Shown piece after piece: positions 17,015 to 18,772 of a stretch of 64,000 nucleotides of DNA. A program made the position numbers and the translations under genes. Under the pieces are notes generated by a model. That model searched no databases. It was not told where the DNA came from and was given only the letters and a program-made list of their open reading frames with translations. Position 1 is the first letter of the stretch; each line of letters opens with the position of its first letter. The stretch comes from Elusimicrobiota bacterium (GTDB taxonomy: Bacteria > Elusimicrobiota > Elusimicrobia > Elusimicrobiales > UBA9959): contig JACRER010000031.1 of the NCBI GenBank assembly GCA_016234365.1, forward strand, positions 9,729-73,728, read 5' to 3'.

Positions 17015-18772
17015 ATGATCAAGAAGTGGGACGTGGCCCCGGCGCCTAACGAAAAGAACCCGGGCCGGCATAAACTGGCGATAAAAGGGGAGATGAAGGA
17101 CATCTTCCTGATAGTCAAGAACATGGGCAGCATCTGTTCGCGGCCCGAGAAGACCGCCGGCGATTTTGACTTCATCATCTACCTCTCCAAACTGGAGATG
17201 GATACGATGAAGAAGCTGAAAACGGTGATGACGGACCTCAGCACCGCGGCCCCCGAGGCCGACACTTTTGGCGACGAGCCGGCCCCGTTCGCCGCGCCCA
17301 CCCCCAAGCTTAAGATAGAACCCCAGGCCGCGCCCAAGGCGCAGCCTGCCCCGCAGGCGGCCCCTCAGCCGGCACCCCGGCCCGCCGCCGCTCCCGCTCC
17401 TGCCCCGGCTCCGGCCCCCGCCCCCGCGGCGCAGCAGCCGCCTGTAATCCCCGCAGGGCGCAGCACGTCCGGCATGGGCCTGCCTTCGCAGGCCGTTAAG
17501 AAGAAAGAGGACGCCCCCATCCCCGTGGCGCCGGTCCCGGCCGCCGTGGCCGCGGCCCCCTCGGCGTCGTCGCGCATAAAAGCCAAGTGGTCGATGGAGC
17601 TGCCGCTTATTCCTACGTACAGCTTCCAGACGCTGATAGCCGGTTCCCATAACCGCTTTGCGCACGCGGCCGCCATGGCCGTGGTGGAGAACCCCGGCGT
17701 GATCTACAACCCGCTGCTGCTGTTCGGCACGCCCGGCACCGGCAAGACGCATTTTGTGAACGCCATCTCCTACGGCCTCTCCGCCTCCATCGGGCAGAGC
17801 AACATCTTCGTCACGGACGGCATCAAGCTGTCGCGCGGCATAGAGCTGGCCGTCAAGGAGAACGCCATCCCCTGGCTGGAGGGCCTGCTGGCCAAGGCCA
17901 AGGTGCTCATCATAGACGACGTGCACCTGCTGATGGTCTCCGAAGTGAACAAGAAGTACCTGACCAAGTGGCTCAACGACTTCGTGGCGCAGAACAAGCA
18001 GATCGTGGTAACTTCCGTCTTCCCGCCCAAGTCGCTGTCCGGCCTGGAGGACGCGGTAGGCTTCCAGTTCACGCAGGGCTGGATGGTGGACCTTAAGATG
18101 CCTAACGCTCAGGCCTACAAGTCCATACTGCAGCAGCTGCTGCAGGGCCTGGACATCAAGCTCTCCGACGAGGATATCTCCGCCATCTTCGCCGCCGGGC
18201 CTATGCCGTTCGGCGACGCGGTAAAGACCATGGAGGATATGCGCAAACTGGAGAAGTTCCTGGTGAACTCCAACAACAACCTTTCGCACGCGCAGTTGCT
18301 GGATATGCTGCTGGGCAGCGGGGATGTGCTGGACCCCTCTCCGGTCACCGAGCCCGAGGCGCAGCAGTCCGCCACCTGGCAGCCGGCCAAAAAAGACGCC
18401 TGGTTCAAGTGGGGCATGTTCTATCCCAAGGGCATGCGCCGCGAGGCCGAGTACGCGCTTTATTGCCTGCATGAACGCTCCAAGGAACTGGGGCTTAACA
18501 CGGACTGGAGCCAGGTCTTCCTGGAAGAGTACAACTCCGACGAGCTTTACGGGATCCCGTTCCATATAGGCAACCTGGCCACGGAGCGGGGCGTAAACGG
18601 CGCCATAGTGCTGGGGCCGCAGCCCACCTCGGCGCTGGGCGCGCAGGAGGCGGAGTTCCGCCACATCGCCTTCAAGATACTGGACAGCTACCTGGTGAAG
18701 GGCGCGTGGCTGCCCCTGAGCCGGCTTAAGTCCAAGGCCGCTTACGCTAAAATACTGATGGACCTGGTGTAG
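17015..18772 (+). CDS. DnaA-clade AAA+ ATPase-like protein lacking DnaA domain IV
   Basis: [36 protein letters not shown] (Walker A), [10 protein letters not shown] (Walker B) and [14 protein letters not shown] closely parallel DnaA domain III. The N-terminal 75-aa domain and Pro/Ala linker have no DnaA counterpart. Confidence 0.7.
   Translation: [585 protein letters not shown]

Follow-up and report, generated by a model that had tools for sequence, protein, structure and literature searches.

The stretch of DNA analyzed here (the window) covers 64,000 nucleotides from an Elusimicrobiota bacterium (GenBank assembly GCA_016234365.1, contig JACRER010000031.1, positions 9,729 to 73,728 of the forward strand), and all coordinates below are counted from its first nucleotide. 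The gene under study encodes a DnaA-like protein and lies between the genes of a partly disordered protein (hereafter, the partner) and a histidine kinase, with the following genes and features:

14422 to 15348, + strand: gene for a Zn-ribbon, transmembrane, HEAT-like repeat protein, an upstream neighbor only in close relatives
15310 to 15338, + strand: candidate sigma-70-like promoter for the operon (TTAATA, 17 nt, TGcTATAAT, extended −10)
15376 to 17007, + strand: partner gene (543 aa; likely true start at the ATG at 15379)
16651 to 17004, + strand: C-terminal alpha/beta-type domain of the partner (last 118 aa)
17015 to 18772, + strand: DnaA-like gene (585 aa, ATG start; from the open reading frame list)
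18776 to 20701, + strand: histidine kinase gene (641 aa; Pfam)
20742 to 21839, + strand: lipoprotein gene, unknown family (365 aa)
23457 to 25013, + strand: ComM/YifB gene, Mg-chelatase-like AAA+ (Pfam), a conserved downstream neighbor
26618 to 27760: DprA gene, downstream of ComM/YifB
27854 to 30004: TopA gene, downstream of DprA

The partner stop codon at 17007 precedes the DnaA-like gene by 7 nt, and the stop of the DnaA-like gene precedes the kinase start at 18776 by 3 nt, as the original prediction had reported; the 3-nt gap suggests translational coupling. Intergenic gaps at most related loci range from −4 to +15 nt, and a 4-nt overlap with the kinase is frequent. The candidate promoter (10/12 consensus matches plus the TG; a pattern match only) sits in the 3′ end of the Zn-ribbon/HEAT gene, ∼40 nt 5′ of the partner gene. 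The kinase comprises an N-terminal transmembrane helix, a degenerate GAF-like region, a coiled coil and GAF, HisKA and HATPase_c domains, and no response regulator is encoded within the operon. The DnaA-like open reading frame is uninterrupted and shows strong codon bias (GC3 of 0.86); an opposite-strand open reading frame of 1396 aa (16745-20935) was rejected as a high-GC artifact.

By profile comparison, the homology of the DnaA-like protein to DnaA domain III is far above chance. Residues 200 to 358 matched positions 3 to 161 of the 162-position Pfam profile PF00308 (Bac_DnaA; E = 3.2e-29), the TIGR00362 DnaA profile scored 129.7 bits (cutoff of 343.9) over profile positions 99 to 296 of 437, and NF001154 scored 95.2 bits against a cutoff of 410. 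The closest solved structures by PDB sequence match were DnaA of B. subtilis, T. maritima and A. aeolicus, and Foldseek with the AlphaFold model ranked DnaA domain III first (top matches 8btg, 8bv3 and 2z4r). The DnaA score lay far above those of Hda (TIGR03420, 34 bits, cutoff of 194.8) and DnaC/IstB (PF01695, E = 6e-7, 29.6 bits), and DnaA domain IV (PF08299, Bac_DnaA_C) gave no Pfam match in the protein. We conclude, in agreement with the original prediction, whose quoted motifs are present, that this is a DnaA-clade AAA+ protein without DNA-binding domain IV. PADLOC defense models gave weak P-loop-level matches alone (mad8, 32 bits; IetA, 21 bits), and roles as a defense-system protein or IS21 helper (IstB) were rejected, the similarity being generic and at the level of the P-loop. 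The description of the protein as uncharacterized also holds: Pfam, NCBIfam and PADLOC contain no curated family of its own, and literature searches on DnaA paralogues, Elusimicrobia and DnaA, and PF00308 returned no publication on it or its family.

The AlphaFold model agrees with the domain layout first read from the sequence and consists of a 77-aa N-domain, a disordered Pro/Ala linker, an AAA+ module with lid and a 125-aa C-domain. Domains and motifs of the protein are as follows:

17015 to 17245, + strand: N-domain (aa 1-77), topology beta-beta-alpha-beta-alpha
17246 to 17590, + strand: Pro/Ala-rich disordered linker (aa 78-192; pLDDT <50)
17591 to 18334, + strand: DnaA-type AAA+ module (domain IIIa, aa 193-360; lid IIIb, aa 361-440; Pfam, PDB and Foldseek)
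17726 to 17752, + strand: Walker A GTPGTGKTH, intact (aa 238-246)
17906 to 17926, + strand: Walker B LIIDDVH, intact (aa 298-304)
18011 to 18028, + strand: sensor I region TSVFPP (aa 333-338), with Val replacing the DnaA Asp (E. coli D269)
18044 to 18070, + strand: box VII (aa 344-352), with R281 replaced by Ala (A347) and the Arg finger R285 by Gln (Q351)
18203 to 18226, + strand: sensor II region MPFGDAVK (aa 397-404), profile-aligned to SNIRELEG
18395 to 18769, + strand: C-domain (aa 461-585), a (beta-alpha)x4 three-layer sandwich replacing DnaA domain IV

Residues were counted in 75 family members from genomes and, separately, in 107 class A and 14 class B representatives (classes defined below). 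The Walker A residues G238, G243, K244 and H246 and the T/S at position 245 were each kept in 75/75 genomic members, as were D301 and D302 of Walker B, a level of conservation indicating that the nucleotide pocket of class A is under strict selection. The segment HNRFAHAAA, which aligns to the DnaA helix preceding the P-loop, is conserved in class A, and the initiator-specific helical insert (ISM) between Walker A and Walker B is present and gap-free against B. subtilis DnaA, its helices being H269-281 and H285-294 in the AlphaFold model. The sensor I region aligns without gaps to B. subtilis SSDRPP, and position 335 is V, L, M, A or I in all 75 genomic members. Box VII aligns gap-free to LEDRLRSRF; at the finger position the genomic members carry Gln (56), Ser (8), Glu (7), Asp (1), His (1) or Lys (1) and never Arg, and in the 107-representative comparison Arg occurs there in approximately one-quarter of class A. 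The absence of the Arg finger from the window protein had been predicted correctly, but the extent of the losses had been underestimated, as the sensor I Asp, R281, the sensor II Arg and the hydrophobic ISM residue are also gone. A Lys had been assigned to the sensor II Arg position, an assignment that does not stand: the HMM profile alignment places Gly400 there, with the Lys four residues further on, and supersedes the by-eye pairing of MRKLEK with VRELEG. This position is mostly G, N or S in the 75 genomic members (R in 7/75). The ssDNA-binding residue of the ISM (E. coli V211, B. subtilis I190) is E277 in the window protein; class A carries a polar or acidic residue there, and 14/14 class B representatives have Ile. 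The DnaA reference sequences used in this comparison agree with the PDB alignments.

All three domains of the DnaA-like protein hold many invariant residues. Those of the N-domain (pLDDT ∼77) are W5, C41, R43 and P44, the last three in a “C-[SG]-R-P” loop, and the domain matched no known family, with no Pfam or PDB sequence match. Its identification as DnaA domain I found no support, since the topology differs and hhalign against two DnaA domain I sequences detected nothing, although the latter is a weak test. The linker varies in length and sequence across the family, exceeding 500-2000 aa in other clades, with the exception of P157, S158 and R162; the short motif [FLIV]PSxxxRxKxEE (∼aa 155-167) is conserved. 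The C-domain was modeled with confidence (pLDDT of 90.3, pTM of 0.84) and matched nothing in Pfam or, by sequence, the PDB; Foldseek returned just generic flavodoxin/Rossmann-like matches (lumazine synthase, Argonaute MID, 4ycs) at TM scores of 0.55-0.64. It is not a diverged DnaA domain IV, as the confident model is alpha/beta, with no helix-turn-helix (HTH) and no PF08299 match, and in this the original prediction was right. A CheY-like receiver was also rejected on the grounds of four strands rather than five and the absence of any receiver among the top 50 Foldseek matches; receivers are abundant in the PDB. Neither the kinase N-terminal region nor any other window protein showed homology to the N- or C-domain.

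The partner, originally described as intrinsically disordered, does contain a disordered region (∼380 aa, acidic and Pro/Glu-rich), but this is flanked by an N-terminal peptide (KKESIDDILSDLNGLLNKMPSILDGI) that is conserved across loci and by a folded C-terminal domain. Searches of the partner against Pfam and NCBIfam found no match. The C-domains of the partner and the DnaA-like protein aligned in register across the whole domain by hhalign (score of 32.6, E = 1e-4), compared to 13.0 ± 2.5 (maximum, 22.2) for 60 column-shuffled alignments, and a second run gave E = 2.3e-4. Profile similarity was modest (probability of 44-56%), and BLASTP between the two domains found nothing, so that the relationship is visible by profile-profile comparison alone. 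These alignments make it probable that the two C-domains are paralogues. Short stand-alone versions of the partner domain (86-206 aa) precede DnaA-like genes in distant Elusimicrobiota.

Conservation of the neighborhood, proposed at the outset as a check, was high. Among loci where the sequence left room, at least 65 of 71 had the partner gene 5′ of the DnaA-like gene, and 68 of 70 had the kinase gene 3′ of it. In Elusimicrobium minutum-like genomes the trio of partner, DnaA-like protein and kinase persists alone, with all other synteny gone. The kinase is absent from the long-linker clades, and in some clades (L066/L067, L082 and L090) the DnaA-like protein has neither an adjacent kinase nor a separate partner.

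The window protein is no isolated oddity, as had first appeared, but belongs to a very large family in which some members are catalytically intact. The family was defined in this analysis by its N-domain/DnaA domain III/C-domain architecture, and the window protein combines the W...C-[SG]-R-P N-domain, the DnaA-type AAA+ module and the terminal alpha/beta C-domain with the lack of domain IV; profiles A5 and A3 match its aa 1-76 and 461-585. More than 100 homologues share 42-79% identity with it across the full length, and in an exhaustive profile search ∼130 of the best 150 representative clusters shared the N-domain and/or the C-domain. When the profiles of the N-domain and the partner C-domain were run in word-indexed searches, just short Elusimicrobiota proteins or fragments came back, and the true size of the family is apparent from the exhaustive search instead. 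Elusimicrobiota account for all 79 GTDB loci and for every named database member, the genomes having been scanned by family-specific peptide patterns and most metagenomic representatives carrying no taxon name. We conclude that this is a large, previously undescribed DnaA-derived family with two new domain families and a dedicated partner. It is also worth noting that NCBI and JGI pipelines label several members “chromosomal replication initiator protein DnaA”. A metagenomic protein unrelated to the family fuses MshEN (the N-domain of pilus ATPases) to DnaA-type AAA+ modules.

Two classes can be distinguished. In class B all DnaA catalytic motifs are intact (sensor I Asp in 14/14), Bac_DnaA Pfam scores reach 208-243 bits and Bac_DnaA_C is absent; these proteins group with canonical DnaA (B. 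subtilis DnaA) in a tree in which class A forms one derived group. Class B genes occur in contexts orthologous to those of class A, with one member directly 5′ of a GAF-GAF kinase and another 5′ of a stand-alone receiver. The catalytic integrity of class B implies that the degenerate state on the branch of the window protein is derived within the family.

Beyond the trio, lipoprotein homologues (355-367 aa) come after the module in most lineages, and DNA-processing genes (ComM, DprA, TopA, XerC) lie downstream, with ComM 3′ of the module in 57/79 loci and DprA and TopA usually next. Four independent deep-branching contexts have a PilT-like T2SSE ATPase gene immediately 5′ of the partner and DnaA-like genes, in two contexts ComEC and PilMNOQ lie within 6-10 kb, and the 64-kb window has no PilT-like gene. 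The original prediction had overlooked both the downstream DNA-processing genes and the upstream PilT-like ATPase of deep lineages. In none of 79 plus 11 loci does dnaN, recF or gyrB lie beside the DnaA-like gene, and cumulative GC skew across the window is monotonic, which implies that no origin is nearby. A canonical dnaA was found neither in the window nor in the 79 related loci, which is uninformative as the sequence examined amounts to <1% of each genome. The literature offers indirect information: a replication operon is reported for E. minutum, with a standard dnaA-dnaN-recF-gyrB context placed in Elusimicrobia (PMC5109545), and a dnaA pseudogene is reported for an Endomicrobium (PMC5174739).

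Our tentative preference, short of calling it probable, is that the DnaA-like protein binds ATP and works alongside the partner and the kinase as an adaptor or scaffold. Since the P-loop and Walker B are kept, the residues for hydrolysis, for gamma-phosphate sensing in cis or in trans and for ssDNA binding are replaced and class B is intact, the window protein would be a pseudo-ATPase that binds ATP or ADP and hydrolyzes ATP poorly or not at all. ATP binding is predicted from conservation alone, and as approximately one-quarter of class A keeps the finger Arg, a lack of hydrolysis may not hold for the whole class. The window protein would also be unable to form DnaA-type filaments on DNA. Loaded with nucleotide, the adaptor might pair through its C-domain with the paralogous C-domain of the partner, and the complex would work at the membrane with the membrane-anchored tandem-GAF kinase, either modulating the kinase or being organized by it, with output through a response regulator encoded outside the operon. 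The clades lacking an adjacent kinase show that the kinase cannot be the sole effector, and the DNA-processing neighbors of most lineages would fit a DNA-related role equally well. The envelope or signaling role originally proposed is thus one of several possible readings: the link to the kinase is strong but not universal, and the link to the envelope consists of the adjacent lipoprotein genes only.

The protein could instead regulate replication, which we consider unlikely: its ATP pocket would take the Arg finger of a DnaA protomer and, as it lacks both a finger and an ssDNA-binding residue itself, it would cap or titrate DnaA oligomers, with the kinase and partner coupling this capping to a signal or to the membrane. 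Hda and DnaC, whose modules are DnaA-derived or of the DnaA clade, act on DnaA or at the origin and provide a precedent. The AAA+ module derives directly from DnaA, as the grouping of class B with B. subtilis DnaA and its Bac_DnaA scores indicate, and the family is conserved across the phylum, small host-associated genomes included. A filament cap would also be expected to show what is seen here, a nucleotide face that is kept and another interface (finger and R281) that is lost. Nonetheless, class B has its own finger and ISM residue, which argues that the ancestral role was not that of a simple cap, and the missing dnaN/recF/gyrB adjacency also weighs against a role in replication. A component of DNA uptake or processing, linked to natural transformation and type IV pili and acting with the PilT-like ATPase, ComM, DprA and TopA, is quite unlikely, even though it draws on the recurrent PilT-like, ComM-DprA-TopA and ComEC/PilMNOQ neighborhoods, the ISM Ile kept in class B and the MshEN fusion. 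The residues for ssDNA binding and catalysis are gone from the window clade, lipoprotein genes intervene between the module and ComM, and neither the PilT-less window nor the E. minutum-like genomes, where the trio stands apart from ComM-, DprA-, TopA- and PilT-type genes, match such a role; furthermore, dprA-topA-xerC is a widespread housekeeping cluster, so the adjacency may be inherited gene order.

That the DnaA-like protein, or at least its class B form, is itself a replication initiator in which the C-domain or partner replaces domain IV is very improbable. The pipeline names and the presence of every DnaA domain III motif in class B speak for it, as would the lack of a canonical dnaA in the sequence examined, which means little at <1% of each genome. 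However, the finger, sensor I, sensor II and ISM residues, which DnaA cannot do without in studied bacteria, are missing from the window protein, Foldseek detected no DNA-binding fold in the C-domain, the gene is not at a dnaN/gyrB locus and the monotonic skew places no origin nearby, and a standard dnaA-dnaN-recF-gyrB operon context is reported for Elusimicrobia (PMC5109545). The loss of many catalytic residues might suggest a functionless, decaying relic of a duplicated dnaA, but the intact reading frame, its codon bias, the full-length identity among >100 homologues, the invariant residues in all three domains and the conserved operon structure leave this barely credible.

Rather improbable, but wider in scope, is a phylum-wide DnaA-derived signaling module in which an initiator-type switch is wired to a two-component kinase and converts replication or DNA status into phosphorylation. 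Class B would carry this switch in a fully active, ssDNA-competent form, and class A would carry it in a frozen form, as a pseudo-ATPase that still binds ATP. The signal sensed might be the state of DnaA, or else ssDNA that is incoming or exposed. To our knowledge, no direct link between a DnaA-type switch and a histidine kinase has been described.

The family extends the DnaA paralogues without domain IV beyond Hda by a large conserved lineage. Intact class B and degenerate class A, in the same gene context, form a natural series in which the conversion of an ATPase into a pseudo-ATPase scaffold can be studied, and the near-obligate kinase linkage points to a regulatory circuit in a phylum that has received little study. 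As E. minutum, a cultured member of the phylum, carries the trio, this idea is testable. In addition, the “DnaA” labels applied by annotation pipelines can cause errors when origins are predicted in Elusimicrobiota genomes or when these genomes are rotated to dnaA.

Among known systems, DnaA itself shares the initiator-clade AAA+ module, gap-free from Walker A across the ISM helices, Walker B and sensor I to box VII, and the plan of N-domain, flexible linker and AAA+ module with lid. The DnaA-like protein differs in bearing an alpha/beta C-domain where DnaA has the domain IV HTH, an N-domain of b-b-a-b-a topology rather than the KH-like a-a-b-b-a-b domain I, in lacking (in the window protein) the finger, R281, sensor I Asp, sensor II Arg and ISM Ile/Val, and in the location of its gene away from the dnaA-dnaN locus. 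Hda is likewise a DnaA-derived AAA+ protein without domain IV and not itself an initiator. It is ∼230-250 aa long, binds the clamp through an N-terminal motif and depends on its own Arg finger for triggering DnaA-ATP hydrolysis, whereas the DnaA-like protein has 585 aa, N- and C-domains, no finger and an AAA+ module nearer to DnaA proper; on reading the sequence, no QL[SD]LF-type clamp motif was found at its N terminus, where the folded domain begins MIKKWDV. DnaC/IstB (PF01695) proteins are initiator-clade AAA+, ATP-dependent adaptors for another protein that do not bind origins, but they keep the Arg finger, hydrolyze ATP and have other N-terminal domains and genomic contexts. The clamp-loader subunits delta/delta′ and some ORC subunits, which kept the AAA+ fold for interaction after losing catalysis or the finger, offer an analogy only, as there is no relationship beyond the AAA+ superfamily and the nucleotide pocket of the DnaA-like protein is strictly conserved. 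Further analogies for the suggested mechanism, drawn without homology from gene linkage and domain logic alone, are KaiC-SasA/CikA and PII-NtrB, where a nucleotide-loaded protein works with a histidine kinase, and PopZ and PodJ-PleC, where a disordered polar scaffold recruits a kinase and which parallel the partner in combining an N-terminal peptide, an acidic disordered region and a C-terminal assembly domain.

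The protein encoded at 17015 to 18772 (+ strand; 585 aa; ATG start), exactly where the original prediction placed it, descends from DnaA. That prediction took it for a DnaA-derived nucleotide switch recruited to an envelope or signaling system; its broad direction held, and the protein is better described as a degenerate branch of a large, unrecognized, DnaA-derived Elusimicrobiota family with a dedicated partner and a usual kinase companion. The Pfam profile Bac_DnaA matched aa 200 to 358 over nearly all of its 162 positions (E = 3.2 × 10−29), and the NCBIfam DnaA equivalog TIGR00362 scored 129.7 bits (cut-off, 343.9) at profile positions 99 to 296 of 437 only; Hda and IstB models gave 34 and about 38 bits, respectively. 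The closest solved structures were DnaA of Bacillus subtilis, Thermotoga maritima and Aquifex aeolicus, and Foldseek on the AlphaFold model ranked DnaA domain III first; the predicted likeness to that domain is real. Alignment with B. subtilis DnaA ran without gaps from the N-linker to box VII, where LEDAVGFQF faces LEDRLRSRF, bearing out the proposed absence of the arginine finger. In contrast, the proposed Lys at the sensor II Arg position was misplaced: a profile alignment puts the Arg of SNIRELEG at Gly400 of MPFGDAVK, with that Lys one helical turn later.

Across 75 family members taken from genomes, the Walker A Gly/Lys and Walker B Asp-Asp were invariant, the sensor I position was always aliphatic, the finger position was Q, S, E, D, H or K (never Arg), and the sensor II position was mostly G, N or S. 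DnaA needs a hydrophobic ISM residue for single-stranded DNA binding, V211 in Escherichia coli and its equivalent I190 in B. subtilis; the window protein has Glu there. Judged by these motifs, its nucleotide pocket is conserved and the residues for hydrolysis, trans-sensing and single-stranded DNA grip are all lost.

The AlphaFold model divides the protein as follows.

aa 1–77: N-domain, b-b-a-b-a (pLDDT about 77)
aa 78 to about 192: linker, disordered, Pro/Ala
to about aa 440: AAA+ base and four-helix lid
aa 461–585: C-domain, confident

Within the otherwise variable linker lies a short conserved motif, [FLIV]PSxxxRxKxEE (17475 to 17515; aa ~155 to 167), with conservation of 90% or more at P157, S158 and R162; it may be a docking peptide. 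Modeled alone from 81 sequences, the C-domain is a (beta-alpha)x4 sandwich (pLDDT, 90.3; pTM, 0.84) that matched only generic flavodoxin/Rossmann-like folds in the PDB (TM, 0.55 to 0.64; identity, 10 to 15%), namely those of lumazine synthase, the MID domain of Argonaute and a fragment of a Clostridioides difficile lipoprotein, with no receiver domain among the matches. It is therefore not a diverged DnaA domain IV, a candidate identity that we ruled out, and domain IV is absent, as had been predicted. No Pfam model or PDB sequence matched the N-domain, the C-domain, the C-terminal domain of the partner or the N-terminal 255 aa of the kinase.

The partner, encoded directly upstream, had been described as intrinsically disordered; disorder is not the whole of it, as the protein also carries a strongly conserved, amphipathic N-terminal peptide, KKESIDEILSDLNGLLNKMPSILDGI, and a conserved C-terminal domain of 118 aa. 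By eye, its acidic disordered region (15376 to 16650) contains G-L-x-L-E-P/S five times and D-K-T-[VM]-[IV] several times. Profile-profile comparison of the partner and DnaA-like C-domains was co-linear over the full domain (score, 32.6; E = 1 × 10−4; probability, 56%), against 13.0 ± 2.5 (maximum, 22.2) for 60 column-shuffled control profiles, and a second hhalign comparison gave E = 2.3 × 10−4; the two domains are probably paralogues. In distant Elusimicrobiota the partner is short (86 to 206 aa), its disordered region reduced or absent, and still lies directly upstream of the Bac_DnaA protein and GAF kinase.

The DnaA-like gene is tightly operon-linked to partner and kinase, starting 7 nt after the stop of the former and ending 3 nt before the start of the latter. 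From its N-terminus onward, the kinase consists of a transmembrane helix, a degenerate GAF-like region, a coiled coil, GAF, HisKA and HATPase_c. Scanning GTDB at one genome per species yielded 79 loci, all from Elusimicrobiota and including Elusimicrobium minutum MAGs (lowest identity, 26%), in which gaps within the trio were −4 to about +15 nt. The neighborhood proved conserved, with the kinase downstream in 68 of 70 loci with room for it (absent from L066 and L067) and the partner in at least 65 of 71. The trio forms an island in E. minutum-like genomes, with unrelated opposite-strand genes on either side, and is therefore a unit. One lineage of class B (a sister branch with intact DnaA motifs) has a stand-alone receiver in place of the kinase, and long-linker clades have neither kinase nor separate partner. 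A 1,396-aa antisense ORF over the DnaA-like gene and kinase (16745 to 20935, − strand) looks like a high-GC artefact, because the codon-position GC filter retains + strand genes only. Other features of the window are listed below.

12150–12605, opposite strand: stand-alone receiver, retained in close relatives only
12702–13073: small nucleotidyltransferase
15310–15338, + strand: candidate sigma-70-like promoter (TTAATA, 17 nt, TGcTATAAT with extended −10; good pattern match), within the 3′-terminal part of the Zn-ribbon/HEAT gene, ~40 nt before the partner gene
23457–25013: ComM, downstream of the module, as in most related loci
25031–26611: secreted Pro/Ala-rich LysM protein
26618–27760: DprA
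27854–30004: TopA

The receiver, a candidate kinase partner, and the nucleotidyltransferase are inserted between rsmE and mtaB of a heat-shock/translation-modification cluster (hrcA-grpE-dnaK-dnaJ-rsmE ... mtaB; 6584 to 14425). Conserved neighbors of the module are a lipoprotein of 355 to 367 aa and ComM; DprA and TopA follow in several contexts examined, joined by XerC in loci L082 and L090. Three lipoprotein genes in a row at 20742 to 23414 (a 365-aa product of unknown family, GNA1162-like and CsgG-like) resemble a putative outer-membrane channel cluster, of which several related loci lack the GNA1162-like and CsgG-like members. In deep-branching contexts, class A (the degenerate branch with the window protein) and class B alike, a PilT-like T2SSE ATPase lies directly before the module. 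In deep-branching L080 to L082 and L086 to L088 the module directly follows a triose-phosphate isomerase, PTAC, RpiB and DeoC cluster, with bacterial-microcompartment genes (BMC, EutN, aldehyde dehydrogenase) also present in L080 to L082; this shared upstream synteny connects class A and class B contexts.

Our preferred reading is a tentative one: the window protein would bind ATP and barely hydrolyze it, its C-domain would pair with that of the partner, and the complex, loaded with nucleotide, would serve as an adaptor or scaffold acting together with the membrane-anchored kinase. We rate it at somewhat below even odds; some clades have the DnaA-like protein without the kinase. Retention of one AAA+ interface and loss of the other is the pattern expected of a cap, and a role in capping or titrating canonical DnaA oligomers is conceivable, if rather unlikely. 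A part in the uptake or processing of DNA linked to pili, alongside PilT, ComM and DprA, seems less probable still. That the protein is itself the replication initiator is very improbable, and a functionless relic, contradicted by the conservation, is scarcely credible. No canonical dnaA was found in the window or the 79 loci, which represent a tiny fraction of each genome. Published support for one is indirect: a dciA context within the dnaA-dnaN-recF-gyrB operon has been reported for Elusimicrobia, represented by E. minutum (PMC5109545); an Endomicrobium endosymbiont carries dnaA as a pseudogene (PMC5174739), and the replication-initiation pathways of Endomicrobium proavitum were described as intact (PMC4505116).

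A word-indexed search returned 155 proteins; the 120 listed are 42 to 88% identical over the aligned region, every named one is from Elusimicrobia, and their annotations are “DnaA/Hda family protein”, “hypothetical” or “chromosomal replication initiator protein” (JGI). When 1.84 billion representatives were searched exhaustively by HMM, 470 matched at E ≤ 1 × 10−30, and about 130 of the best 150 share the N-domain and/or C-domain; lengths range from about 400 to 2,568 aa because the linker can exceed 2,000 aa. We found no paper on this family, which should interest workers on replication initiators and AAA+ evolution. Class B member P0295 (NCBI MBI3292123.1, from an Elusimicrobia MAG) bears the name “chromosomal replication initiator protein DnaA”, and similar labels are attached to several JGI members (P0002, P0162 and P0285 among them), all without domain IV; such pipeline labels could cause origins or dnaA to be misassigned in genomes of Elusimicrobiota. 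The exhaustive search also recovered other DnaA-type architectures without domain IV (P0274, P0285, P0290, P0293, P0299, P0270 and P0271), including ~650-aa metagenomic proteins with two tandem Bac_DnaA AAA+ modules and P0270 (1,990 aa), with an MshEN domain and two Bac_DnaA modules, which P0271 (1,876 aa) joins on the AAA+ tree alone; neither the tandem nor the MshEN-fused architecture has the N- and C-domains that mark the family described here.

Table. DnaA features in class A (107 representatives, including the window protein) and class B (14 representatives).
Walker A: class A, invariant Lys; class B, GGVGLGKTH
Sensor I: class A, Asp lost; class B, TSD[RK]PP, Asp retained
Box VII: class A, R281 lost; class B, LEDRLRSRF, both Arg retained
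Finger position: class A, R27/S24/K21/Q19; class B, Arg
Sensor II: class A, Arg lost; class B, SNIRELEG, Arg retained
ISM residue: class A, polar or acidic; class B, Ile
N- and C-domains: present in both
Domain IV (Pfam): absent from both

On a rough neighbor-joining tree of the AAA+ module, class B falls with B. subtilis DnaA, whereas class A forms a single large derived group, in which the window protein keeps company with P0066, P0106, P0112, P0157 and P0158.
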